Shown: positions 185 to 10,858 of the stretch, piece by piece
Layout: each line of letters begins with the position of its first letter
How positions within the stretch are numbered: position 1 is the first letter of the stretch
Virus record (IMG/VR): IMGVR_UViG_2711768001_000007
DNA: 10,858 nt
Reading direction: 5' to 3' (one strand)
Origin: a virus
Taxonomy: Duplodnaviria > Heunggongvirae > Uroviricota > Caudoviricetes
Translations under genes and position numbers: made by a program
Notes under the pieces: model-generated
What the model was told of the DNA's origin: nothing
The model's input: only the letters and a program-made list of their open reading frames with translations
The model's database searches: none

Positions 185-1423
185 ATGAGCAGCGCAATTC
201 ATAGACTTAGCGACACTCTTTTACGAAAATTAAGCGGATCACCAACCACAAAAAACGCCTTTTTTAATGACGGTGGCAATCTTAGCGTAAGACATTCCAC
301 CAGCGGCCTGTTAACCTGGTATTTCACTTACAGGGCCGGAACTGGCAGGCAGGTATCACCGGAACGCCTGAGACTGGGCAACTATCCCGATCTGAGCCTG
401 AAAGCAGCCAGGGAAAAAGCGGCACAGTGTCGCGCCTGGCTGGCGGAGGGGAAAAATCCACGCCATGAGCTTAATCACACAGTGCAGGAAGCGTTAGCCC
501 CTGTGACGGTTAAGGACGCGCTCACTTACTGGCTTGAGTCGTATGCGAAGGAAAAGCGCACTGACCACGAATCACTGAAAAGCCGTATCAATAAGCACAT
601 AATCAGCCAGATTGGTGCTATGCCGCTGGATAAATGCGAGCTACGCCACTGGCTGGCCTGTTTTGACCAGCTTGCTAAGCGTAATCCGGTATCAGCCGGC
701 TTTTTGTTGCAGGTATGCAAACAGGCGCTTAAGTACTGCCGTAAACGTCGCTACGCCGTCAGTAACGTTCTTGATGATATGGTCGTAGGTGATGTGGGAA
801 AAAAAGCAGAAATAAGCGAGCGAGTGCTAACAAACAAGGAGCTTGGCGAGCTACTCCGCGCACTGGATGAAAAAATTTTCCCGCCGTACTACAGCGCTTT
901 AATTCGCCTTCTGATTGTCTTCGGATGCCGTACCACTGAGCTAAGACGCTCCGAGGTTCGGGAATGGGATTTTAAAGAAATGCTCTGGACTGTGCCGAAA
1001 GAACACAGCAAAACGAAGGTAGCAATATTCAGGCCAATACCGGAAGCGATCTTGCCGTTCGTCATGAAGCTGGTGGAGCAGAACAGGCACACGGGCTTAT
1101 TGCTTGGAGAACTGAAAGGGCAATCATCCGTAGCAGAGTACGGAAGAACGGCACACAGACGCATTAATCAAACCCCCTGGTCGTTGCACGACATCCGGCA
1201 CACATTTACAACCATGCTGAACGATTTAGGCGTGGATCCGCATATTGTCGAACAGCTTACTGCCCACCAGATGCCAGGAATGCAACGCGTCTATAACCAC
1301 TCCCGTTATCTCGATGCAAAGCGTGACGCTCTTAATCTATGGGTAGACCGTCTCGAGCTTCTCCAGAACAATGATGAAAAAATCGTTGTTATGACCCCGC
1401 GAATTTACCCCCAAAATTCTTGA
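185..1423 (+). CDS. int: Site-specific tyrosine integrase, P4-like family
   Basis: 412-aa ORF. N-terminal region has the P4-integrase-like pattern (LSDTLL...FNDGGNLSVRHSTSGLLTWYFTYRAGTGRQ). C-terminal catalytic region carries GCRTTELRR (Arg), HDIRHTF (His-x-x-Arg) and RVYNHSRY (His, Tyr nucleophile). Confidence 0.9.
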   Translation: MSSAIHRLSDTLLRKLSGSPTTKNAFFNDGGNLSVRHSTSGLLTWYFTYRAGTGRQVSPERLRLGNYPDLSLKAAREKAAQCRAWLAEGKNPRHELNHTVQEALAPVTVKDALTYWLESYAKEKRTDHESLKSRINKHIISQIGAMPLDKCELRHWLACFDQLAKRNPVSAGFLLQVCKQALKYCRKRRYAVSNVLDDMVVGDVGKKAEISERVLTNKELGELLRALDEKIFPPYYSALIRLLIVFGCRTTELRRSEVREWDFKEMLWTVPKEHSKTKVAIFRPIPEAILPFVMKLVEQNRHTGLLLGELKGQSSVAEYGRTAHRRINQTPWSLHDIRHTFTTMLNDLGVDPHIVEQLTAHQMPGMQRVYNHSRYLDAKRDALNLWVDRLELLQNNDEKIVVMTPRIYPQNS

Positions 1424-1842: not shown

Positions 1843-2052
1843 ATGCGTGAAATAAATGAAGATCGCGTAATCCGTGAGGATGAATGTCGTAAGTTAACTG
1901 GAGTGTGTCGCACTACACGCTACGAACTGGAGAAAAAAGGGAGCTTTCCGTCTCGCCGTAATCTTGGTGGGCGTTCTGTAGGTTGGCTGCTGTCCGAGGT
2001 TATGGAATGGGTTAAAAGCCGGGATCGCATTAATTCAGGTAAGGCAGCGTAA
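1843..2052 (+). CDS. alpA: AlpA-family (prophage CP4-57 regulatory protein-like) HTH regulator/excisionase
   Basis: 70-aa product from ATG 1843 (RBS-like TAGGT upstream). C-terminal GGRSVGWLLSEVMEWV matches the AlpA pattern (GVKSVGWIEAEIDEWL in E. coli AlpA, from memory). The track ORF begins at GTG 1756, but the N-terminal extension looks non-coding. Confidence 0.7.
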   Translation: MREINEDRVIREDECRKLTGVCRTTRYELEKKGSFPSRRNLGGRSVGWLLSEVMEWVKSRDRINSGKAA

Positions 2053-2166
2053 AGGGGAGCATATGACATATAAAACAAAGACGACCGGGGGCGGTCGCCA
2101 ATGGATACACACTAAACTTGAACGCATCACCAACAATGCCACATTTGCGGCTGGTGGGCAATGTGA

Positions 2167-2340
2167 TCAGTCAGATTTGGTTCGTTCCAAGGTTTGCAAC
2201 GAGAGCTTTTTCCTGTGCTCTTTAAGGAATTTCTCAAGAGCAAAAGCACATGGCGCGAATCTTTCTGATTCATGCTCTATCTTTCTGCGCCGTCTTTTCC
2301 GTGCCGGTGATAATGTTTTGGTCAATTCTTTATCGGTCAT
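2167..2340 (-). CDS. Small basic hypothetical protein (57 aa from Met-6; 62 aa if started at 2355)
   Basis: Minus-strand ORF 57 bp downstream of the RHH gene. AGGA lies 7 nt upstream of the ATG at 2340. Lys/Arg-rich (RKRRRRK). No recognised family. Confidence 0.4.
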   Translation of the reverse strand: MTDKELTKTLSPARKRRRRKIEHESERFAPCAFALEKFLKEHRKKLSLQTLERTKSD

Positions 2341-2397
2341 TGTGTTGTCCTGCATAGCAATGCGCCGTAGTTACTCACACCACGGCGCTGATAGTGA

Positions 2398-2595
2398 TTA
2401 TTCTGATTCTTTGGCCTTCCGGCGCTGTTCATATTTTAATTTGCGTCCACAGGCATCTAAGACCCATGCGGAAAAATTAGCACTAGGATTAGTTAATTTT
2501 TCTTGTTCAACGCTGGCATCAATCCCATCTATAAGCTCATGTGGGAATCGAATATTTTTCTTTGCTGATTTGTTGTTTGTGTTACCGCTAGACAT
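2398..2595 (-). CDS. Ribbon-helix-helix (Arc/MetJ/CopG-like) DNA-binding protein; candidate element repressor
   Basis: 65-aa ORF with strong RBS (GAGGTG 6 nt upstream). Segment IRFPHELIDGIDASVEQEKL...SANFSAWVLDA follows the P22 Arc pattern (FNLRWPREVLDLVRKVAEENGRSVNSEIYQRVMES, from memory). Sits divergently from an operator-bearing promoter region. Confidence 0.6.
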   Translation of the reverse strand: MSSGNTNNKSAKKNIRFPHELIDGIDASVEQEKLTNPSANFSAWVLDACGRKLKYEQRRKAKESE

Positions 2596-2622
2596 TGATG
2601 CACCTCACTTAAATGGACTTTA

Positions 2623-2702
2623 TGGGCGCACACAATACAGCAAAAAAAATGAGATGTTAAGTATTGACATGTGCGCACACATGATTTTAATCTGTGCGCA
2701 CA
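2623..2702. promoter_or_regulatory. Divergent promoter/operator region: TGGGCGCACA (2623-2632), TGTGCGCACA (2670-2679), TGTGCGCACA (2693-2702); rightward promoter -35 TTGACA 2664-2669 / -10 TTTAAT 2686-2691; leftward promoter -35 TGTTAA(rc) 2655-2660 / -10 ACAATA(rc) 2632-2637
   Basis: Two perfect 10-bp palindromes spaced 23 bp centre to centre, plus a 9/10 third copy 47 bp away. They overlap back-to-back sigma70-like hexamers with 16-17 bp spacers. Confidence 0.55.
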
Positions 2703-2800
2703 GTTTGAGTTTTGTCACTCAAATTAAGCAACGCCCCGCAGTGCTCGCAACACATGCAGGGCGTCTAACCACCAACGATAGCAAGAGTATCGAGGTAGCT

Positions 2801-3004
2801 ATGAGAAATCATACCACACACCCGCAAGGGCGGGACTCGCACAACCTGAATAAATATATCTGGCGTTTTATCGCCCTGAGCACGGCACAACCGCGCGTGA
2901 TTACCATTGAGGCCAGCAGCGAACAGGAAGCACGCCAGCAATCCCCGGCTGGCTGCGTGATGGTATTCGCCGCCCGTATTCGTCAGGGGGGGTACCATGC
3001 CTGA
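2801..3004 (+). CDS. Hypothetical small protein (68 aa), first ORF of the rightward early operon
   Basis: ATG 2801 preceded by GAGGT (2792-2796). In frame with the 3' end of the long track ORF 2063-3004. End overlaps the next ORF start. Low confidence. Confidence 0.3.
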   Translation: MRNHTTHPQGRDSHNLNKYIWRFIALSTAQPRVITIEASSEQEARQQSPAGCVMVFAARIRQGGYHA

Positions 3005-3317
3005 TATGTCAAATTACCAGTACCTGATTAATCCGCATTTTAACTGTGAGCATGATATTGCTAAAAAGGTTTATTCCGCTGCGGATGGGGCTACTGACAA
3101 TATATCAATGGCTGTTGCGTCAATTGGTAGCCTGATGTGGCATGCGTCAGAAAATGAGGACTATGACGAAAAGGCCATGCGCATTGATATGGGTAATATC
3201 GGTTTGTTACTGGCAATGCTTGGACATTTTGATATTTCGTTACGGTGCACCATTGAAAATGCCACAGATGCATTAAATGCTATAAAGAAAGCGAATACTG
3301 ATTCAAATCGGGGATAA
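2997..3317 (+). CDS. Hypothetical protein (106 aa)
   Basis: ORF with G-rich RBS (GGGGGGG) upstream; codirectional with the replication gene. No recognised motif. Confidence 0.45.
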   Translation: MPDMSNYQYLINPHFNCEHDIAKKVYSAADGATDNISMAVASIGSLMWHASENEDYDEKAMRIDMGNIGLLLAMLGHFDISLRCTIENATDALNAIKKANTDSNRG

Positions 3318-3323
3318 ATAATC

Positions 3324-3623
3324 ATGAGAACGTATTTATCTGGCTTGACTGCCAGCGGTTATGCACACCCCCAAATTATCCCCGGCGCTATTTATCTGGA
3401 TAAGAACGGTAACAGAGTAACGGTAAAAGAACTGATGTTTGACCGTGTGTATTTTATCCGTGATGGCTATTCATTTCTTAGTTCGCTGAACGTGGAGATC
3501 TTTATTTGCAGATTCCGGCGGGAAATCCCGACTTCCAGAAATAACCATGTGTCACGTGTGGATGTGGATAAAAAACTACAGGAACTGAAAAACATGATTG
3601 CCGCGTGGAGAGAGCAGAAATGA
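3324..3623 (+). CDS. Hypothetical protein (99 aa), translationally coupled to the replication gene
   Basis: ORF whose stop overlaps the rep start (ATGA at 3620-3623). No recognised motif. Confidence 0.5.
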   Translation: MRTYLSGLTASGYAHPQIIPGAIYLDKNGNRVTVKELMFDRVYFIRDGYSFLSSLNVEIFICRFRREIPTSRNNHVSRVDVDKKLQELKNMIAAWREQK

Positions 3624-5437
3624 AAAAAGCGCCAAATTTAAAACACCAGCCGCGTGACAAAATGACGGAAGTCATCATTTTTGCGGGTAGTGATGCGTGG
3701 GCACATGCGAAGCAGTGGCAGGAACAGGACGGGCGACTGGCTGGCGATAACGTGCCACCTGTCTGGCTTGGAGAGCAACAACTTGCCGAACTGGACAACC
3801 TGCAAATCGTACCGGATGGACGCTATCGCGTGCGTCTCTACCAGGCGGGGTTATTGCGTCCGGGGCTTGTTAATACCATCGGGCAGAAACTGGCAGCGGC
3901 AGGTGTCAGGGATGCTGATTATTACCCTGAAGGAATGCACAGCCAGAAACGGGAGAACTGGCGCGAATATCTGGAACGTGAGCGGGGAGAGCTGACGGAA
4001 AAGAAAAAGGTAGTTGAACTGCCTGTAAAGAAAAAAGAGCGGGTAAAAGACGATAACGCTTCATCACTGGCGCTTAACCAGATGGGAGCAAGTCAACGCG
4101 GCGAAGTTCTCCTGGCACATTATGGCGGTGAACTGGCGATTCATGCCGACTCTGACACTGTTCACCATTACAACGGCGTTGTATGGGAGCCAGTACAGGA
4201 TAAAGAATTACAGCGAGCTATGGCGCAGATTTTCATTGATGCGGAGATCAGCTATTCGCAGAACGCCATTAAATCGGCGGTCGATACCATGAAGTTAAGT
4301 TTGCCTGTAATGGGGAATACAGCCCGTAACCTGATTGGATTCAGTAACGGGGTATTTGATACCAGAACAGGTAATTTTCGGCAGCATAACAAAAACGACT
4401 GGTTGTTAATTGCCAGTGAATTACCTTTCAGCCCACCAGCAGAGGGGGAAACGCTGGCAACACATGCGCCGAATTTCTGGAAGTGGTTACGCCGTTCGGT
4501 GGCTGAGAATGACCGCAAGGCGGATCGCGTACTGGCTGCATTATTCATGGTGCTGGCGAACCGGTACGACTGGCAGTTATTCATTGAGGTAACAGGTCCA
4601 GGGGGAAGTGGTAAAAGCGTGATGGCGGAGATTTGCACCATGCTGGCGGGTAAGGCTAATACAGTATCAGCGAGCATGAAGGCGCTGGAAGATGCAAGGG
4701 AACGCGCGTTAGTGGTTGGCTTTTCGCTGATTATCATGCCGGATATGACCCGCTACGCTGGTGATGGGGCGGGAATTAAGGCTATTACAGGCGGTGACAA
4801 GGTGGCAATCGACCCAAAACATAAAGCCCCATATTCAACGCGTATCCCGGCAGTAGTGCTGGCGGTTAACAATAACGCTATGTCATTCAGTGACCGCAGT
4901 GGGGGGATCTCGCGCCGTCGGGTGATATTCAATTTTTCGGAAGTTGTACCGGAGAACGAACGCGATTCAATGCTGGCGGAAAAAATAGAAGGTGAGCTGG
5001 CGGTAGTGATTCGTCATCTGCTTACACGGTTTGCTGACCAGGACGAAGCCAGACGCCTTTTATATGAGCAGCAGAAATCAGAAGAAGCACTCGCGATAAA
5101 GCGTGAAGGTGATTCGCTGGTGGACTTCTGCGGCTATCTCATGGCGTCGGTAATGTGTGATGGCCTGTTAGTGGGTAATGCTGAAATTGTGCCATTCAGC
5201 CCGCGCAGGTATCTCTATCATGCCTATCTGGCTTATATGAAGGCACATGGGTTTGGTAAACCTGTAACACTGACGCGCTTCGGTAAAGATATGCCGGGGG
5301 CAATGGCGGAATATGGCAGGGAGTATATGAAACGGAAAACGAAGCACGGTTTGCGTTCAAACGTGACACTGACGGAGGAATCAGAAGACTGGATGCCATC
5401 ATGTGTATCGGTCACTAATGACGATAGCAAAAATTAA
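3620..5437 (+). CDS. Replication initiator: D5_N-like region plus SF3-type P-loop helicase (P4-family primase C-terminal-like)
   Basis: Walker A GPGGSGKS and Walker B-like LIIMPDM. D5_N-like segment IGFSNGVFDTRTGNFRQH...LPFSP. Start taken at ATG 3620 (GGAGAG RBS) rather than GTG 3605. Iteron array begins 14 nt after the stop. Confidence 0.85.
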   Translation: MKKAPNLKHQPRDKMTEVIIFAGSDAWAHAKQWQEQDGRLAGDNVPPVWLGEQQLAELDNLQIVPDGRYRVRLYQAGLLRPGLVNTIGQKLAAAGVRDADYYPEGMHSQKRENWREYLERERGELTEKKKVVELPVKKKERVKDDNASSLALNQMGASQRGEVLLAHYGGELAIHADSDTVHHYNGVVWEPVQDKELQRAMAQIFIDAEISYSQNAIKSAVDTMKLSLPVMGNTARNLIGFSNGVFDTRTGNFRQHNKNDWLLIASELPFSPPAEGETLATHAPNFWKWLRRSVAENDRKADRVLAALFMVLANRYDWQLFIEVTGPGGSGKSVMAEICTMLAGKANTVSASMKALEDARERALVVGFSLIIMPDMTRYAGDGAGIKAITGGDKVAIDPKHKAPYSTRIPAVVLAVNNNAMSFSDRSGGISRRRVIFNFSEVVPENERDSMLAEKIEGELAVVIRHLLTRFADQDEARRLLYEQQKSEEALAIKREGDSLVDFCGYLMASVMCDGLLVGNAEIVPFSPRRYLYHAYLAYMKAHGFGKPVTLTRFGKDMPGAMAEYGREYMKRKTKHGLRSNVTLTEESEDWMPSCVSVTNDDSKN

Positions 5438-5724: not shown

Positions 5725-5970
5725 ATGACAGCGAAGCACATAAAAAAATCACAATCGCACGCCCTTGATTTGACGGAACACTGGTTAAGGGTGTCGATAA
5801 AAATCATCGACCGCAACGCCGGGGAAGGATATGCGAAAGCACATCCCGAACTGATTAGCGCATTCATGACAACGGCAGCTGCAAACTTTGCCACGCTGAC
5901 AGAACGGGAGATTGCCGAAGCGGAACAGGTGACAACCATCAACGTTAAAACCGGAGAGCAGACAGCATGA
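5725..5970 (+). CDS. Hypothetical protein (81 aa), translationally coupled to the SSB-like gene
   Basis: ORF with ATGA overlap to the next gene (5967-5970). No recognised motif. Confidence 0.45.
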   Translation: MTAKHIKKSQSHALDLTEHWLRVSIKIIDRNAGEGYAKAHPELISAFMTTAAANFATLTEREIAEAEQVTTINVKTGEQTA

Positions 5971-6389
5971 CAGCACAGATAGCGGCTTACGGGCGGCTGG
6001 TGGCTGACCCGCAGTTAAAGACCACCAGCAAGGGTACACAAATGACGATGGCGAGTATGGCGGTCCCACTTCCGTGCAGCCAGGCAGATGACGGAACGGC
6101 GACGATGTGGTTATCCGTCCTGGCGTTTGGCAGACAGGCCGAAGCACTGGCAAAGCACCGCAAGGGTGAACTCCTGAGCGTGGCGGGTAACATGCAGGTG
6201 AGCCAGTGGACCGGACAGAACGGGGAGACGCGGCAGGGCTGGCAGGTTATCGCAGACAGCGTAATCAGTGCGAGAACGGCGCGACCGGGCGGCAAAAAAG
6301 GCCAACAGGGGCAGGCTACTGATGCACTGAGCAGAGCAAAACAACAGGCGGGAAATGATGATCCGTACGGGGATAACATACCGTTTTAA
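5967..6389 (+). CDS. ssb: Single-stranded DNA-binding protein homolog (OB fold) with C-terminal acidic ...DNIPF tip
   Basis: 140-aa product aligns by eye with E. coli SSB: LSVLAFGRQAE vs HRVVLFGKLAE, VSQWTGQNGETRQ vs RTRKWTDQSGQDR, and C-terminal DDPYGDNIPF vs DFDDDIPF. Confidence 0.75.
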   Translation: MTAQIAAYGRLVADPQLKTTSKGTQMTMASMAVPLPCSQADDGTATMWLSVLAFGRQAEALAKHRKGELLSVAGNMQVSQWTGQNGETRQGWQVIADSVISARTARPGGKKGQQGQATDALSRAKQQAGNDDPYGDNIPF

Positions 6390-6403: not shown

Positions 6404-6428
6404 AAGCCGGAGCAATCCGGCTTTTTTA
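6404..6428 (+). terminator. Rho-independent terminator-like hairpin after the SSB-like gene
   Basis: Stem AGCCGG (6405-6410) / CCGGCT (6417-6422), 6-nt loop, then T-run 6422-6427. Confidence 0.6.
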
Positions 6429-6497
6429 TGGGTCCTCCCGGTGTAGTGACCTGCCACGGGGCGGGAGCGTCGCGGAAAAAGGCTGGTTTTTGCATTT
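6429..6497 (+). repeat. Conserved ~70-bp element, copy 1 (about 92% identical to 8964-9035)
   Basis: GGGTCCTCCCGGTG...CCACGGGGCGGGAGCG.CGCGGAAAAAGGCT.GTTTTTGCATTTTCA. Internal dyad CTCCCG/CGGGAG and GGTG/CCAC. Differences between copies cluster in the putative loop. Confidence 0.7.
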
Positions 6498-6688
6498 TCA
6501 TGGCGGCGGCAGCATGTGTAGTAATTTATTGATAATTAAAAGTTATTTCTGTTTTCACCTGTACAATATTTTTTTCTCCCTGTCATTAGACCAGTTTGCA
6601 ATTAATTGAAATATATAAATAAATCTGTTTTTCACCTGCCAGGTGGAGTTGCCTGTGTCAAAACGTGTTCAGATGGCGGGATATTTAT

Positions 6689-6813: not shown

Positions 6814-7023
6814 GTGAGTTGTATTAATGACCTGAACACGGGCGATATCAGGGGTGGTTCCGTTCATCTGGATGCGCAGACCGTTATGCGCCTTAAGCAG
6901 TACAGGATCGACCATATAAATCATCATCCTGACCAACCATTACCAGGTGTGGCGCAGATTGTCAGACATGCCGTAAACACCTGGCTTAATCAGAATGGTT
7001 TTGCATCGGTGGGGGAACAATGA
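6814..7023 (+). CDS. Hypothetical small protein (69 aa), possibly RHH-like, translationally coupled to the protease-capsid gene
   Basis: GTG start 6814 with strong RBS AAGAGGA (6800-6806). Stop overlaps capsid start (ATGA 7020-7023). RHH assignment is a guess from a beta-strand then two-helix pattern. Confidence 0.45.
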   Translation: MSCINDLNTGDIRGGSVHLDAQTVMRLKQYRIDHINHHPDQPLPGVAQIVRHAVNTWLNQNGFASVGEQ

Positions 7024-8933
7024 ATCGCTGGTACACCATTAAGGCGGCGGATGTTCGCGGAGCGGCGGATATATCTATCTATGAGGAGATTGGCGGCTTC
7101 GGTGTTACTGCAAAGCAGTTCGCGGAAGACCTGAAAGCCCTTGGCGATGTTTCACATATCAATCTGAGGATCCATTCACCAGGTGGTGATGTGTTTGAAG
7201 GCATCGCCATCTATAACCTGCTACGGAATCATCCGGCAGACATTACGGTTTATATCGATGGTGTTGCGGCTTCAATGGCTTCGGTGGTCGCAATGGCTGG
7301 CGATCGTGTTGTGATGCCGGAAAACGCCATGATGATGATACATAAGCCGTGGGGTATCTCTGGCGGAAATGCTGGTGATATGCGTGATTATGCTGATTTG
7401 CTGGATAAGGTGGAAACCGTGTTAGTCCCTGCTTATGCCAGAAAAACGGGCAAATCAGCACAGGAAATTACCGCCATGCTGGAAGATGAAACCTGGATGG
7501 ACGGGAAAGAATGCCTTAAGCACGGTTTTGCTGATGAATTGTTGCCATCCGTCAGAGCAATGGCGCGAATTGAATCGAAGCGCACAGGAGATTTTTTACA
7601 TATGCCGGAAACCATTAAAGGAATGATTACACCGCCACAGGGAGCGGCAAATATTGCTGGTAATGAACAGAAACGCATCAATGGAATAAGTGAAGTGTTT
7701 AGCCTGTTCGGCAGTCGTTACGACGGGATCAAAATGGCGTGTCTGGAAGATGCATCATGTACACCGGAAATGGCCCGTGAAAAGCTGTTGAACGAGCTGG
7801 GGCGCGAGTCCACGCCATCCAATAAAAATACCCCGGCTCATATCTATGCCGGAAACGGAAACATAACAGGTGATGCAATTCGTCAGGGGCTTTATTCCCG
7901 TCTTGGGTATGAACGGCCTGAACGAGGCAACCCTTACGCGATGATGAGTCTTTTTGAAATGGCCCAGGCATCACTGGTTGATCGTGGTATCACTGTGAGC
8001 GGTTTTATTAATCGCTCGCAGGTTGTTAATGCGGCTTTTACACACAGCAGCAGTGATTTTTCTCATATTCTGGCTGGTGGGGCTGAAAAATCTGTACTGA
8101 AAGGCTGGCAGGACAGCGGCGAAACGTTCCAGAAATGGACGCGTACCGGTTCGCTTTCAAACTTTCATGAAGCAAAGCGCGTTGGTCTGAATGGTTTTTC
8201 AAAGCTGGATAAAGTACCGGAAGGTGCGGAATATAAATACATCACCACCAGCGATAAAGGTGTACCTATTGCGCTGGCCACGTACGGGAATATATTTTCC
8301 GTTACCCGTCAGGCCATTATCAACGATGACCTGACCCAGTTAACTACAATCCCCATGGCGATGGGACGCGCAGCTGCCAGAACAGTTGGCAATCTGGTTT
8401 ATCTCCTGTTAACCAGCAACGGCAAGTTTACGGATGGTAAAGCGTTATTCCATGCCGATCATAAAAATCTTATTGCGAAGGATATGGACATGGAGGGGCT
8501 TAACGAAGCCCGTAAGCTGATGCGCCTCCAGGAAGACGCTAACGGCGATTCGCTGAATATTACCCCTGCATTTGTCCTGGTCCCCGCCGCGCTGGAGTCT
8601 GCCGCACATCGCGCCATTCTGTCATCGTCATCACTCTTTCCGGTTGATGGCGTGGGCACTATCAATCAGAACCCCGGCATCATTAACGTGGTGAAAGATA
8701 TGGCGGAGGTAATCGTTGAGCCACGTCTTGATAAAGCCAATAACAAGGAGTGGTATGTGGCAGCGGCGAAGGGTATGGACACGATAGAGGTCGCTTATCT
8801 TGATGGTATTGATACGCCATATCTTGAGGAGCAGGAGGGCTTTACTGTTGATGGCGTCGCCTGGAAGGTGCGCATAGATGCAGGTGTCGCGGCCCTCGAC
8901 TATCGCGGATTACTGAAATCGAGTGGAGCATGA
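7020..8933 (+). CDS. Fusion protein: N-terminal ClpP-family prohead protease plus C-terminal probable phage major capsid protein
   Basis: N-terminal ~190 aa align with ClpP: IHSPGGDV vs INSPGGVI, GVAASMAS vs GQAASMGA (catalytic Ser), MIHKPW vs MIHQP (catalytic His). The C-terminal ~440 aa have capsid-like character (ending ...GVAALDYRG); that part is a judgement call. Confidence 0.8.
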   Translation: MNRWYTIKAADVRGAADISIYEEIGGFGVTAKQFAEDLKALGDVSHINLRIHSPGGDVFEGIAIYNLLRNHPADITVYIDGVAASMASVVAMAGDRVVMPENAMMMIHKPWGISGGNAGDMRDYADLLDKVETVLVPAYARKTGKSAQEITAMLEDETWMDGKECLKHGFADELLPSVRAMARIESKRTGDFLHMPETIKGMITPPQGAANIAGNEQKRINGISEVFSLFGSRYDGIKMACLEDASCTPEMAREKLLNELGRESTPSNKNTPAHIYAGNGNITGDAIRQGLYSRLGYERPERGNPYAMMSLFEMAQASLVDRGITVSGFINRSQVVNAAFTHSSSDFSHILAGGAEKSVLKGWQDSGETFQKWTRTGSLSNFHEAKRVGLNGFSKLDKVPEGAEYKYITTSDKGVPIALATYGNIFSVTRQAIINDDLTQLTTIPMAMGRAAARTVGNLVYLLLTSNGKFTDGKALFHADHKNLIAKDMDMEGLNEARKLMRLQEDANGDSLNITPAFVLVPAALESAAHRAILSSSSLFPVDGVGTINQNPGIINVVKDMAEVIVEPRLDKANNKEWYVAAAKGMDTIEVAYLDGIDTPYLEEQEGFTVDGVAWKVRIDAGVAALDYRGLLKSSGA

Positions 8934-8937
8934 CAAC

Positions 8938-8963
8938 AAGGGCGGCGATAGCCGCCTTTTTTT
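8938..8963 (+). terminator. GC hairpin plus T-run after the capsid gene; terminator-like, and also contains a 9-nt match to lambda cosN
   Basis: Stem GGCGGC (8941-8946) / GCCGCC (8951-8956), loop GATA, T-run 8957-8963. GGGCGGCGA (8940-8948) matches the first 9 nt of lambda cosN GGGCGGCGACCT as I recall it. Confidence 0.5.
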
Positions 8964-9035
8964 ACGGGTCCTCCCGGTGGGGTGGTCTGCCACGGGGCGG
9001 GAGCGGCGCGGAAAAAGGCTAGTTTTTGCATTTTC
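8964..9035 (+). repeat. Conserved ~70-bp element, copy 2 (about 92% identical to 6429-6497)
   Basis: See copy 1. Same position relative to a GC hairpin plus T-run. Confidence 0.7.
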
Positions 9036-9190
9036 ATTCGTCATCATCATCTTTCTATAATGTTGAATTTTAAGTGTTTTTATTTTTGGTATGTTAATTT
9101 TGCTTATTTTGTGTTCAACATACAGCGCGTTTTTTGACCTTTTTTAAAAGATATTTGCAAGATGCATTTTTAAAACATTCTGGAGCGGGT

Positions 9191-9676
9191 ATGGATCGGG
9201 AACTGAAAAATCTGATGCTGAACATTAACCAGCTGGCGGCGATAGCGGGAATATGTCGCCAGACTGCGGCGGCAAGGCTGAAAAATATCCAGCCAGCCGG
9301 AGGACATGACAAGCTGAAACTCTATCGGGTGACTGACATTCTGACTTGTTTTCTTGATCTTCCCGTTCCGGCATCACTGGAAGAAATGGAGCCACACGAC
9401 CGTAAGGCCTGGTATCAGTCCGAACGTGAGCGCCTCAAGTTCGAACAGGAAACGGCGCAACTCATACCCGCCGATGATGTGCGAAAAGAGATGGCTATAT
9501 GGGGAGAAATCGTAAGCGAGGAACTGGAAAAACTCCCCAGTATTCTGGCACGTGATGTTGGGCTTAAACCGATGGCAGTAAACAGAGTGCAGTCAATTAT
9601 TGACGATTTGTGTAATCAGATTATCAGCCGGATGGTAAAAAATGACGTAGTGAATGAGGTCGCAAAACAGGCATGA
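9191..9676 (+). CDS. Terminase small subunit, lambda Nu1-like
   Basis: From ATG 9191 (GGAG RBS 9183-9186). NQLAAIAGICRQTAAARLKNIQPAGGHDKLKLYRVTDIL parallels lambda Nu1 KKQLADIFGASIRTIQNWQEQGMPVLRGGGKGNEVLYDSAAVI (from memory). The track ORF starts at TTG 9134, which I consider less likely. Confidence 0.7.
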   Translation: MDRELKNLMLNINQLAAIAGICRQTAAARLKNIQPAGGHDKLKLYRVTDILTCFLDLPVPASLEEMEPHDRKAWYQSERERLKFEQETAQLIPADDVRKEMAIWGEIVSEELEKLPSILARDVGLKPMAVNRVQSIIDDLCNQIISRMVKNDVVNEVAKQA

Positions 9677-10660: not shown

Positions 10661-10717
10661 TTGTTCGTGGTTGTTCGATATTGTTCGTGGAACGGTGTAG
10701 TTAATGGTGTAGTTAAT
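10661..10717. promoter_or_regulatory. Putative integrase arm-type sites at the right end: three 10-bp-phased TTGTTCG decamers (10661-10690) and tandem GGTGTAGTTAAT x2 (10694-10717)
   Basis: Mirror of the motif content at 91-164, same orientation, about 70 bp inside the right terminal repeat. Confidence 0.4.
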
Positions 10718-10788
10718 TTTACTGTTTTTGACGAGCTTATTGTTTGCAACTCAATGAAAAATAAAGGCTAATAAGCCAAATACTATAA

Positions 10789-10858
10789 ATGATAGTTATT
10801 TATCATCTAGTGTTCGCGGGTGTTCGTGGTAGTGTTTTGTGTGCATTCATCGCTATGA
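10789..10858. repeat. Right terminal direct repeat, 70 bp, identical to 1-70; putative att core (attR side)
   Basis: Exact identity to 1-70. Confidence 0.8.

Follow-up and report, generated by a model that had tools for sequence, protein, structure and literature searches.

The three small open reading frames that lie ahead of the replicase gene in this virus record appear, at odds that we put slightly above even (roughly 0.55), to open, as its first cistrons, the early replication operon in a PICI of the EcCICFT073/CP-933C type, where translation of an Icd/Kil cistron would gate the genes behind it. The features on which this reading is based are collected in Table 1. Throughout, the window denotes the whole stretch of 10,858 nucleotides that was analyzed.

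Table 1. Coordinates and assignments of features in and around the operon head
Feature	Coordinates	Strand	Assignment and basis
alpA	1843-2052	+	PF05930, E 3.8e-16; upstream of ORF1, same strand
Long in-frame ORF1 extension	2063-3004	+	313 aa in total; candidate Eta-like form
YlcI/YnfO-family (DUF3950) small protein	2398-2595	-	NF041551, 3.5e-16; PF13132, 1.6e-6
Divergent promoter/operator region	2623-2702		three copies of the palindrome TGTGCGCACA
Leftward promoter, predicted	2660-2632	leftward	TTAACA/TATTGT; promoter scan
Rightward promoter, putative	TTGACA 2664-2669, 16 nt, TTTAAT 2686-2691	+	identified by eye
Structured ORF1 leader	2731-2792	+	alignment, folding, covariation
ORF1	2801-3004	+	67 aa; Icd-like/Kil family; first cistron of the early operon
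ORF2	2997-3317	+	106 aa; acidic helical-hairpin protein, rare family confined to satellites; P4 epsilon slot
ORF3	3324-3623	+	99 aa; basic DUF4222 protein of the RgdR family, coupled to the replicase
Primase-family/D5-type helicase replicase	3620-5437	+	downstream end of the operon; D5_N, DUF5906 and Pox_D5 domains

The Element and the Layout of Its Early Operon

The 10.8-kb window is a PICI-type satellite that matches E. coli STN0717-20 at 100% identity (identical RefSeq record, NZ_AP022482.1). It is inserted with cspD/yljB on one side and clpS on the other, and perfect 70-nt direct repeats are found at its two ends (1-70 and 10789-10858). The RefSeq annotation lists, in addition to int and alpA, genes for YlcI/YnfO, Icd-like, hypothetical, DUF4222, primase, SSB and capsid fusion proteins. 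As in other Gram-negative PICIs, int, alpA and pri-rep follow one another in sequence, which is also the order in CFT073; the size falls within the range of about 10-15 kb, and lysis and tail genes are absent from the annotation. The same gene order recurs in EcCICFT073, in Sakai Sp7/CP-933C, in four more E. coli loci and in loci L017-L022. Indeed, EcCICFT073-type PICIs and the cf-PICI EcCIEDL933 (CP-933C) have in common with the window a backbone of int, alpA, (YlcI/YnfO), the Icd-like gene, small ORFs, DUF4222, pri/rep, a hypothetical gene, SSB and morphogenesis genes. They differ from it in two places. The morphogenesis module of the window holds only a ClpP-protease/capsid fusion and DUF1441, and the slot that separates the Icd-like gene from DUF4222, which varies from 1 to 4 small ORFs by island, is occupied by one 106-aa gene in the window, by four unrelated ORFs in CFT073 and by three in Sakai. 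The element is an EcCICFT073/CP-933C-type PICI and not a P4-like satellite. The head of its operon is the usual layout for such satellites rather than new cargo, and none of the PADLOC-DB defense models matches ORF1, ORF2, ORF3 or the long ORF, which leaves the earlier suggestion of anti-phage cargo without a known defense family behind it.

The three ORFs are translationally chained to each other and to the primase/helicase, and the gene order bears out that they head a rightward early operon that ends in this gene. The replicase also matches TIGR01613 (primase_Cterm), with a score below the cut-off. ORF1 and ORF2 overlap by 8 nt (ATGCCTGA), such that the final codons of ORF1, CAT GCC TGA, include the ORF2 start. 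A gap of 6 nt separates ORF2 from ORF3, and ORF3 overlaps the primase by 4 nt (ATGA), the primase start ATG at 3620 lying within the ORF3 stop. Candidate Shine-Dalgarno elements read from the sequence are GAGG at 2792-2795 for ORF1, a G-run at 2986-2992 for ORF2 and GGGGA at 3310-3314 for ORF3. The order alpA, Icd/Kil, small gene(s), replicase-coupled small gene resembles that of P4, which runs vis, eta/kil, epsilon, orf151, cnr, alpha. The parallel to the P4 left operon that had been drawn at the outset thus extends to homology in the case of ORF1, a relative of eta/kil, whereas ORF2 and ORF3 have no detectable homology to epsilon, orf151 or cnr.

ORF1 Belongs to the Icd-like/Kil Family

ORF1 had been regarded as the least certain of the three, and all three had been described as unknown ORFs with no identifiable motif. 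It is instead the best supported, with a match to the Icd-like family NF033153 of 69.6 bits (cut-off 25, E 1.7e-19) and one to phrog_6196 at E 1e-44. The same NCBIfam profile recovers P1 Icd (52.6 bits, E 3.4e-14) and, in the P4 eta/kil ORF, residues 85-132 (73.9 bits, E 7.8e-21). An internal ATG of the P4 eta ORF, preceded by an AGGAGG Shine-Dalgarno sequence, yields a product of exactly 65 aa, and we take these C-terminal 65 aa to be Kil. By these profile matches, ORF1 is homologous to P1 Icd and to the C-terminal domain of P4 eta/kil. Its identity is 92% with the EcCICFT073 gene, 51% with Sakai ECs1577 and 28-35% with the P4 Kil and P1 Icd proteins. Among solved structures, no relative of the Icd-like family or of DUF4222 was found.

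The likeness extends from the protein to the arrangement of the gene. Like P4 kil/eta and P1 icd, ORF1 is short (65-73 aa across these cistrons) and is translated first in an early operon, and its stop overlaps the next start, by 8 nt as in P4 kil/epsilon and compared with 4 nt in P1. Junctions of this type recur in P4, in P1 and in five satellites. The overlaps that follow the Kil/Icd cistron are kept as GTGCGTAA in P4, ATGCCTGA in the window, ATGGCTGA in locus L006, ATGCGTAA in L009 and ATGCTTAA in Sakai, with ATGA in P1, CFT073 and L012. These observations add kil/icd to int, alpA/vis and primase as the fourth gene through which PICIs and P4 are linked by homology.

The P4 eta gene also has an in-frame upstream extension, as ORF1 does, of 73 codons in P4 and 246 codons in the window; unlike that of P4, the extension of ORF1 is antisense to two genes. 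The long frame begins 11 nt past the alpA stop and runs antisense through the two leftward genes with no stop, while the other two forward frames contain 15 and 21. None of 2000 dinucleotide shuffles gave a stop-free extension, and the frame upstream of ORF1 is open in 8 of 10 distinct loci, over 237-462 codons. No Pfam family matches the extension, and the only PHROG matches are weak, Ant-like and in CFT073. A PGAP pseudo-CDS is annotated at 2063-2402. The ORF1 start is called at 2654 (117 aa) in NZ_AP022482.1 and at the equivalent of 2801 in four related genomes. The 2654 start precedes the -35 box of the local promoter, so its use on transcripts from that promoter is unlikely, and only as a portion of the long frame would it be translated.

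Operators, Leader and the Proposed Gate

Between the divergent genes, a repeat scan places the TGTGCGCACA palindromes at 2623-2632 (with one mismatch), 2670-2679 and 2693-2702. Related loci carry two repeats at the same positions, with differing sequences. The rightward promoter was missed by the promoter scan, which needs an A at position 2 of the -10 element. A YlcI/YnfO-family gene is found at the same position in CFT073, L013-L017 and L022, and its product is a candidate repressor that may act at the palindromes. This would be a divergent, protein-type switch, as opposed to the C4/CI antisense RNA control of P4 and P1. An Rfam search of the whole window returned no C4/CI or IsrK antisense RNA at E <=1, and with no C4/CI-type RNA in the window the P1/P4 style of control is not transferable as it stands. 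The sole Rfam match in the window is a chance lncRNA hit.

Downstream of the promoters lies the conserved ORF1 leader. A hairpin occupies 2731-2764 and is followed by the unpaired, C-rich tract CTAACCACCAA (2765-2775) and then by a second, small hairpin, CGATA/TATCG (2776-2792), directly against the Shine-Dalgarno element. The folding z-score is -3.64. Of the 16 pairs in the consensus structure, 4 show compensatory changes, and 96% of cells are paired; the covariation measures were matched by at most 1 in 500 shuffles, and the number of further pair types by 11 in 500. Widely conserved DNA begins between about 2713 and 2761, close to the leader hairpin. Within the island, the complement of the leader tract (CTAACCACCAAC) was found nowhere besides the site itself.

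We propose that in the quiescent island the divergent YlcI/YnfO-type protein would occupy the three palindromes and keep the local promoter (TTGACA 2664/TTTAAT 2686) off. Upon helper infection or induction, AlpA-driven transcription would come in from upstream, and ribosomes translating the long frame between the alpA stop and ORF1 would sustain it, much as for P4 eta. The gate for ORF2, ORF3 and the replicase would then be translation of the Icd/Kil cistron, acting both through the conserved NTGNNTRA/ATGA overlaps and by blocking polarity across the C-rich structured leader, in the role that P1 icd has towards ant, and kil towards the left operon of P4. The Icd/Kil protein itself would halt host division or growth. 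ORF3 would be a basic DNA- or RNA-polymerase-associated cofactor, produced alongside the replicase, that modulates replication or transcription, and its effects on host genes (LEE, motility) would be by-products. ORF2 may be an early protein-binding effector directed at a helper or host protein, which is the least certain of the assignments. In P4, kil and eta are reported to have roles in anti-termination (Forti et al., 1999). The AlpA protein of EcCICFT073 is an activator of PICI induction that turns on downstream genes (PMC6092414).

The gate so proposed comprises the operators together with the structured leader and the long open frame, and it could explain both how an island is switched on and why phage anti-defense proteins can cause it to kill the cell. 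In a more far-reaching form, which we regard as unlikely to hold, the Icd/Kil cistron, the C-rich leader and the stop-free extension, antisense to the repressor genes, would constitute a translation-dependent gate common to P4, E. coli PICIs and cf-PICIs. Polarity would then spare only transcripts under translation, whether they come from the alpA side or from the local promoter once derepressed. The operon would serve a second purpose as a growth-arrest device triggered by phage, with the ORF2 family as a hitherto unrecognised satellite effector aimed at some protein of helper or host, and DUF4222 as a Tudor-like cofactor linking the replicase to RNA polymerase or DNA. Should none of this hold, the region would be the ordinary regulatory head of a common satellite.

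Growth Arrest in Related Elements

The gate competes most closely with a reading in which the operon head (the Icd-like gene, variable small ORFs, DUF4222 and primase) is primarily an abortive-infection or superinfection-exclusion module. An incoming phage protein would derepress it and the Icd-like toxin would kill or arrest the cell, making these genes defense cargo rather than parts of the life cycle. Experiments on relatives count in favor of this reading and of the gate alike. In ECOR61, programmed cell death on phage orf24 requires six linked genes, among them an Icd-like gene and a DNA primase; the growth arrest is gone once the Icd-like gene is removed, and suppressor Tn insertions fall in that gene and in the next two small ORFs (Silas et al., bioRxiv 10.1101/2023.04.06.535777). 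Cell death in that strain is probably effected by the Icd-like gene, which bears indirectly on whether proteins of this family block division or kill when expressed. P4 behaves similarly with Abc1, and suppressors of the ECOR15 P4 hit int, alpA, the Icd-like gene (eta/kil), an ORF106-like gene and the primase (bioRxiv 10.1101/2023.04.06.535777). The variability of the slot behind the Icd-like gene is likewise hotspot-like. However, in all islands examined, prototype PICIs included, the genes invariably head the replication operon and are coupled to the replicase; the absence of PADLOC matches also counts against a defense module. The reconstituted effect in ECOR61 was called muted (bioRxiv 10.1101/2023.04.06.535777), and uncontrolled satellite replication is also expected to arrest growth, as in EcCICFT073 (PMC6092414). 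We consider a primarily abortive-infection role possible but somewhat unlikely, and note that the abortive-infection and life-cycle readings are compatible with one another. What the present analysis identifies is a variable slot, with a rare family of candidate effectors in it, directly behind the toxin gene. The PICI papers that we consulted assign none of these genes a part in the satellite life cycle.

ORF2 Is a Satellite-Restricted Helical Hairpin

ORF2 matches phrog_15327 from end to end (E 2e-71), and no Pfam or NCBIfam model matches it. A homologue search of 1.84 billion representatives returned only 15 hits. The homologues P0059, P0064 and P0065 are 26-40% identical to ORF2 (alignment A5), and all three are located in int-alpA satellites behind an Icd-like gene. 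Hits P0058, P0060 and P0063 are TPR/repeat proteins that align over a short low-complexity stretch and were discarded as spurious. The AF2 model (pLDDT 78.8) consists of two long helices, and a fold search of PDB and BFVD gave no match at E <=0.001 (best E 0.13); matches to spectrin and EsxB were judged to be generic helical hairpins and uninformative. ORF2 is a member of a tiny family of acidic helical-hairpin proteins confined to satellites, where they follow an Icd-like gene.

The location of ORF2 invites comparison with P4 epsilon, which has the same slot right after kil/Icd, the same 8-nt overlap and a similar size (95 aa, compared with 106 aa for ORF2). By this comparison ORF2 would be an analogue of P4 epsilon or P1 Ant, an antirepressor that binds the repressor of a resident helper prophage, or the island's own, and thereby brings about induction. 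Indeed, P1 ant comes after icd with an ATGA overlap, a small, acidic protein that is all-helical in the AF2 model would suit protein binding, and the family is found in satellites only. The argument is nonetheless one of position. Profile comparison by hhalign detects no similarity between ORF2 and P4 epsilon (probability 0.2%), no homology was detected to P4 orf151, and ORF2 does not resemble the small ORFs that fill this slot in CFT073 and Sakai. According to published descriptions, such PICIs sense helpers rather than induce them. As to the island's own repressor, ORF2 is at least 94% identical across islands with differing YlcI/YnfO alleles and operators, which speaks against an antirepressor directed at it. 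More generally, it does not co-vary with repressor/operator type, DUF4222 allele or replicase type. An antirepressor role for ORF2 is, in our view, improbable, and we favor the broader assignment as an early effector.

ORF3 Is a Replicase-Coupled DUF4222 Protein

The match of ORF3 to Pfam PF13973 (60.9 bits, cut-off 27, E 8.8e-17) and its model, which has a Tudor/SH3-like core, identify it as a member of the DUF4222/RgdR family with that core. RgdR is an experimentally studied regulator whose DNA binding is non-specific and whose effects on transcription are pleiotropic (PMC3378721). RgdR (ECs1581, of O-island 51/CP-933C/Sakai Sp7) and c1493 (of EcCICFT073) are, like ORF3, basic DUF4222 proteins of 99 aa, and their genes have the same position and the same ATGA overlap onto the replicase gene. 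They differ in sequence, in that ORF3 is only 30-33% identical to either and has PGA at aligned residues 20-22 in place of RGD. ORF3 belongs to a separate allele group, within which identity is 91-99%.

A 99-aa DUF4222 gene lies directly before the replicase gene and overlaps it in the window, CFT073, Sakai, L013-L016 and L017-L022, and it is coupled in this way to three replicase types (D5_N, AAA_25 and DUF927). P4 cnr (ORF106, DUF5375), a copy-number regulator that binds alpha, is likewise directly upstream of its replicase. It has no similarity to DUF4222, however, and is separated from alpha by a gap of 14 nt, whereas ORF3 overlaps the primase start. An hhalign comparison of ORF3 with cnr/ORF106 gave a probability of 0.1%, and no homology was found to P4 epsilon, to orf151 or to the small genes that precede the replicase in two other satellites. 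None of the three ORFs showed homology to a housekeeping replication accessory.

Since RgdR acts on host genes, ORF3 could instead be a moron-type host regulator, kept for rewiring host transcription (virulence, motility, surface) and not for service to the satellite. RgdR/ECs1581 and c1493 activate LEE1/T3S and repress motility, and deletion of OI-51 reduces colonization (PMC3378721). However, ORF3 is a distant relative at the identity given above, and it is devoid of the motif at residues 20-22 from which RgdR takes its name and which matters for T3S activation (PMC3378721). The ED1a orthologue of RgdR is inactive on T3S, and the family also occurs in strains without LEE (PMC3378721). The gene moreover always overlaps the replicase start and belongs to an early operon that is repressed in the quiescent island, which is unusual for a moron. 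We give the moron reading little credence. The present analysis puts the virulence regulator RgdR in its native context, as an early gene with a Tudor-like fold that is coupled to the replicase.

Gene Status and Distribution

All three ORFs, which the original prediction had placed within 2801-3623, are annotated CDSs in NZ_AP022482.1; together with the profile matches and the conservation in related elements, this confirms that they exist as predicted. Pooled over five close loci, pN/pS is 0.28 for ORF3, 0.62 for ORF2 (with only 11 variable sites) and 0.67 for ORF1, so the substitution evidence is strong for ORF3 only, ORF1 and ORF2 being weakly below 1. The variable sites of ORF1 in the close loci are evenly spread over codon positions (10/12/10). 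The status of ORF1 and ORF2 as genes rests on family-level conservation and synteny. It is very improbable that any of the ORFs is merely a frame left open by chance within a leader region, as the pN/pS of 0.6-0.7 for ORF1 and ORF2 among close relatives, the even spread of ORF1 sites and the tiny size of the ORF2 family are set against profile matches far above cut-offs, length, order and overlaps kept across divergent satellites (down to identities of 26-40% for ORF2 and 28-35% for ORF1), confident AF2 folds for ORF2 and ORF3, and phenotypes of Tn insertions in equivalent genes. As far as comparison of sequences goes, the three ORFs are real, conserved genes that head the replication operon of an E. 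coli satellite.

When the three proteins were compared by tblastn with 50,697 phage records, ORF2 and ORF3 gave zero matches and ORF1 a single one, in vB_KppS-Ant, which at 16.5 kb is probably itself a satellite. Among complete E. coli genomes, the three-ORF stretch (1.1 kb, coverage >=80%) is present in 375 of 5426, and the ORF1 part in 1363 of 5426. These counts correspond to about a quarter of the genomes for the Icd-like cassette and to about 7% for the exact three-gene head.

Results and Discussion

The three small ORFs preceding the primase gene, ORF1 (67 aa), ORF2 (106 aa), and ORF3 (99 aa), appear in the ORF listing of the window at exactly the coordinates of the original prediction, and RefSeq annotation includes all of them. 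The start of ORF1 is the predicted one in four related genomes and is placed at 2654 in the source genome only. ORF1 ends CAT GCC TGA, and the ATG of ORF2 lies within these codons, so that the two genes share 8 nt; a gap of 6 nt separates ORF2 from ORF3, and the stop of ORF3 overlaps the primase ATG (ATGA). Of 5426 complete E. coli genomes, 375 contain the 1.1-kb block at ≥80% coverage and 1363 contain the ORF1 part, which occurs in up to six copies per genome. A comparison of five close loci gave pN/pS ratios of 0.28 (ORF3), 0.62 (ORF2, with 11 variable sites), and 0.67 (ORF1); because of the latter two values, the coding case for ORF1 and ORF2 rests on profile matches and on synteny between evolutionarily distant loci, not on substitutions. 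All three genes are in families already named or clustered, and their layout is common to prototype phage-inducible chromosomal islands (PICIs).

The window is 100% identical to the chromosome of E. coli STN0717-20 (NZ_AP022482.1), at a site between cspD/yljB and clpS. Perfect 70-nt direct repeats (att sites) lie at both ends, 1-70 and 10789-10858, and the window is therefore one complete 10.8-kb island. Its gene order is that of the Gram-negative PICI backbone, common to EcCICFT073 and the Sakai Sp7/CP-933C element.

Coordinates of the island's genes and of the ORF1 leader elements
Feature	Coordinates	Strand	Remark
Integrase	185-1423	+	
alpA	1843-2052	+	
62-aa ORF	2167-2355	-	
YlcI/YnfO family gene	2398-2595	-	
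Leader hairpin	2731-2764	+	Conserved, structured ORF1 leader
Unpaired C-rich tract CTAACCACCAA	2765-2775	+	Between the two leader hairpins
5-bp hairpin adjoining SD	2776-2792	+	ORF1 leader
ORF1-ORF3	2801-3623	+	ORFs of the finding
Primase-family/D5 helicase	3620-5437	+	
Hypothetical gene	5725-5970	+	
SSB	5967-6389	+	
ClpP-protease/major-capsid fusion	7020-8933	+	
DUF1441	9134-9676	+	

The original prediction had ranked ORF1 as the least certain of the three and had likened the ORFs to the P4 left operon. ORF1 is instead the best anchored, and for this gene the P4 parallel is one of homology, not analogy only, because of a shared model, sequence identities, and conserved junctions. The model that ORF1 matches (Icd-like/Kil family, NF033153) is also matched by P1 Icd (E 3.4e-14) and by residues 85-132 of the P4 ORF annotated "cI gene product (AA 1-137)" (E 7.8e-21). 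An internal ATG of that P4 ORF, with AGGAGG ahead of it, yields exactly 65 aa, which we take to be the size of P4 Kil, Eta being the longer in-frame form; both points reportedly go back to Forti et al. in 1999. PGAP names the P4 eta/kil gene in ECOR15 "Icd-like". ORF1 shares 92% identity with the EcCICFT073 gene, 51% with Sakai ECs1577, 35% with P1 Icd, and 28% with P4 Kil. At the boundary with the following gene the type of junction is conserved: GTGCGTAA in P4 (kil/epsilon) and ATGCCTGA in the window, with the same type in other satellites (ATGGCTGA, ATGCGTAA, ATGCTTAA) and ATGA at the corresponding position in P1 (icd/ant1), CFT073, and satellite locus L012. One 324-aa variant (P0057) carries the long extension, the Icd-like domain, and ORF2 as one continuous frame (…IRQGCAMPDMSNYQ…), so the two cistrons can be joined by a small indel in their 8-nt overlap.

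Traced upstream, the ORF1 frame stays open as far as an ATG at 2063, 11 nt past the alpA stop, which gives a frame of 313 aa (2063-3004, +) that runs antisense to both leftward genes. No stop interrupts the extension, versus 15 and 21 in the other two plus-strand frames, and stop-free dinucleotide shuffles numbered 0 of 2000. Open in-frame extensions of 237-462 codons are present in 8 of 10 distinct loci, distant satellites included, starting at, or close to, the stop codon of the plus-strand gene ahead (alpA, HTH_17, ORF6N, or Bro-N), with a per-locus P for a stop-free extension of ≤0.0015. In satellite locus L009 a 256-aa ORF ends with the Icd-like domain, and Sakai has a separate 247-aa ORF at the place of the extension. 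No Pfam family was found for the extension, and its PHROG matches were only weak, Ant-like, and in CFT073. The extension thus stays open but is not conserved as a protein. A PGAP pseudo-CDS (2063-2402) lies inside the long frame, which recalls P4 eta as an in-frame longer form. Third codon positions coincide on both strands in this register, so substitution patterns cannot tell the selected strand; the long frame may be translated as an extension like Eta, or it may be a genuine antisense overlap of genes. The 2063-2402 interval and its Sakai counterpart (L003, 2732-3475, ECs1576) carry a plus-strand long ORF in some records and minus-strand YlcI/YnfO plus a small ORF in others; automated pipelines are inconsistent on the alpA-ORF1 interval.

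Upstream of the interval in the original prediction, between the divergent YlcI/YnfO gene and ORF1, the palindrome TGTGCGCACA occurs in three copies, at 2623-2632 (one mismatch), 2670-2679, and 2693-2702. The palindromes bracket a rightward promoter of near-consensus sequence, identified by eye (TTGACA at 2664-2669, 16 nt, TTTAAT at 2686-2691) and overlap the -10 of a leftward promoter given by a promoter scan. Related islands have two repeats at the same positions with other sequences, and their YlcI/YnfO alleles also differ, a pattern that would fit an allele-specific repressor/operator pair. The palindromes and divergent promoters may constitute the repressor/operator switch of the island, an element called unclear for Gram-negative PICIs in 2018 (PMC6092414). 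The ORF1 leader has a folding z-score of -3.64 and a consensus structure of 16 pairs, 4 with compensatory changes, in which 96% of cells are paired. Its covariation measures were reached by at most 1 of 500 shuffles, and that for further pair types by 11 of 500. The widely conserved DNA segment starts at ~2713-2761, near the first leader hairpin, and ends at the ORF1 stop. A C4/CI-type RNA is absent from the window, an Rfam search matched no family to the leader, and a search of the island found no complement of the C-rich tract elsewhere in it.

ORF2 has no match in Pfam, NCBIfam, or PADLOC, nor in phage genomes by tblastn. A full HMMER scan of 1.84 billion representatives returned 15 matches, three of which were repeat or TPR proteins and were rejected as spurious. 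The true relatives (alignment A5) are P0011 (66% identity), P0059 (40%), P0065 (30%), and P0064 (26%); all are 100-106 aa and lie in int-alpA satellites 3' of an Icd-like gene or domain, directly after it for P0059 and with one or two small ORFs between in L009 and L012. Three arrangements follow these relatives, with AAA_25, DUF927, or untyped genes. In other islands this slot contains differing numbers of unrelated small ORFs, four in CFT073, three in Sakai, and two in satellite locus L017; the position after the Icd-like gene is a variable slot. ORF2 shares the exact slot of P4 epsilon, though hhalign found no relationship. By residue count the protein is acidic, and its AF2 model (pLDDT 78.8) shows two long helices folded into a hairpin, for which fold searches of PDB and BFVD gave generic coiled hairpins only, none at E ≤0.001 (best 0.13). 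ORF2 keeps ≥94% identity between islands whose repressor alleles, operator sequences, DUF4222 alleles, and replicase types are different, and no co-varying cis partner is visible across them. We favor a protein-binding effector.

ORF3 scores 60.9 bits against DUF4222 (PF13973; cut-off 27). The one studied member, RgdR (ECs1581) of O-island 51/CP-933C, activates LEE1 and type III secretion, represses motility, and binds DNA non-specifically, with orthologues c1493 (CFT073) and ECED1_1787 (ED1a) (PMC3378721). ORF3 is 30% identical to ECs1581 and 33% to c1493, with the same length and position, but PGA replaces the RGD motif of RgdR. A profile search gave 450 relatives, which fall into two allele groups and are nearly all 99 aa long. 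In the AF2 model, residues 23-63 make up a confident core (pLDDT about 90), a small beta-barrel, and residues 78-98 form a helix at the C-terminus. At every locus examined the DUF4222 gene overlaps the start of the replicase, whether D5_N-type, AAA_25, or DUF927; its position is equivalent to that of P4 cnr, to which it has no similarity. The favored reading of ORF3 is a replicase- or polymerase-associated cofactor. In P0172 (L020-L022, 3501-3800), the N-terminus of the window's DUF4222 allele (MRTYLSGLTASG) is joined to the body of the RgdR allele, and the gene sits after an ORF2 copy 94% identical to that of the window; this mosaic suggests recombination inside the DUF4222 gene.

In our view, the early operon begins with a gated head, the ORF1-ORF3 block. 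The local promoter would be repressed by a YlcI/YnfO-type protein, while AlpA-dependent transcription, as demonstrated for EcCICFT073 (PMC6092414), would enter from upstream, with the long frame translated along the way. Once the Icd/Kil cistron is translated, the conserved overlaps and the prevention of polarity would allow ORF2, ORF3, and the replicase to be expressed, and the Icd/Kil protein would itself arrest the host. Relatives supply experimental support for this reading, and the same results, in ECOR61 and P4, make an abortive-infection module at the operon head a live rival or complement. Cell death triggered by a phage gene in ECOR61 needs a six-gene set including the Icd-like gene and primase, with suppressor insertions located in the Icd-like gene and in the next two ORFs; the P4 suppressors of death triggered by Abc1 map to int, alpA, the Icd-like gene, an ORF106-like gene, and primase (bioRxiv 10.1101/2023.04.06.535777). 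The PICI gene homologous to P4 kil, the stop-free extension overlapping the candidate repressor genes, the variable slot with its ORF2 family, and the predicted Tudor-like fold of RgdR proteins all seem under-appreciated.

The island encodes a ClpP-like prohead protease/major capsid fusion, also present in satellite loci L006 and L018, and a DUF1441 protein, while portal and large terminase are absent from the annotation; it thus fits neither the classical PICI, which lacks capsid genes, nor the full capsid-forming type represented by CP-933C. A second repeat pair near the island ends (60 nt, 78% identical, 105-164 and 10661-10720) contains tandem GGTGTAGTYAAT motifs, possible arm sites for the integrase. 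A direct repeat of 80 nt, with 91% identity between its copies, is found just 3' of SSB (6422-6501) and just 3' of the capsid fusion (8958-9037); each copy precedes the next gene block, and the two may be repeated regulatory or terminator/promoter elements.
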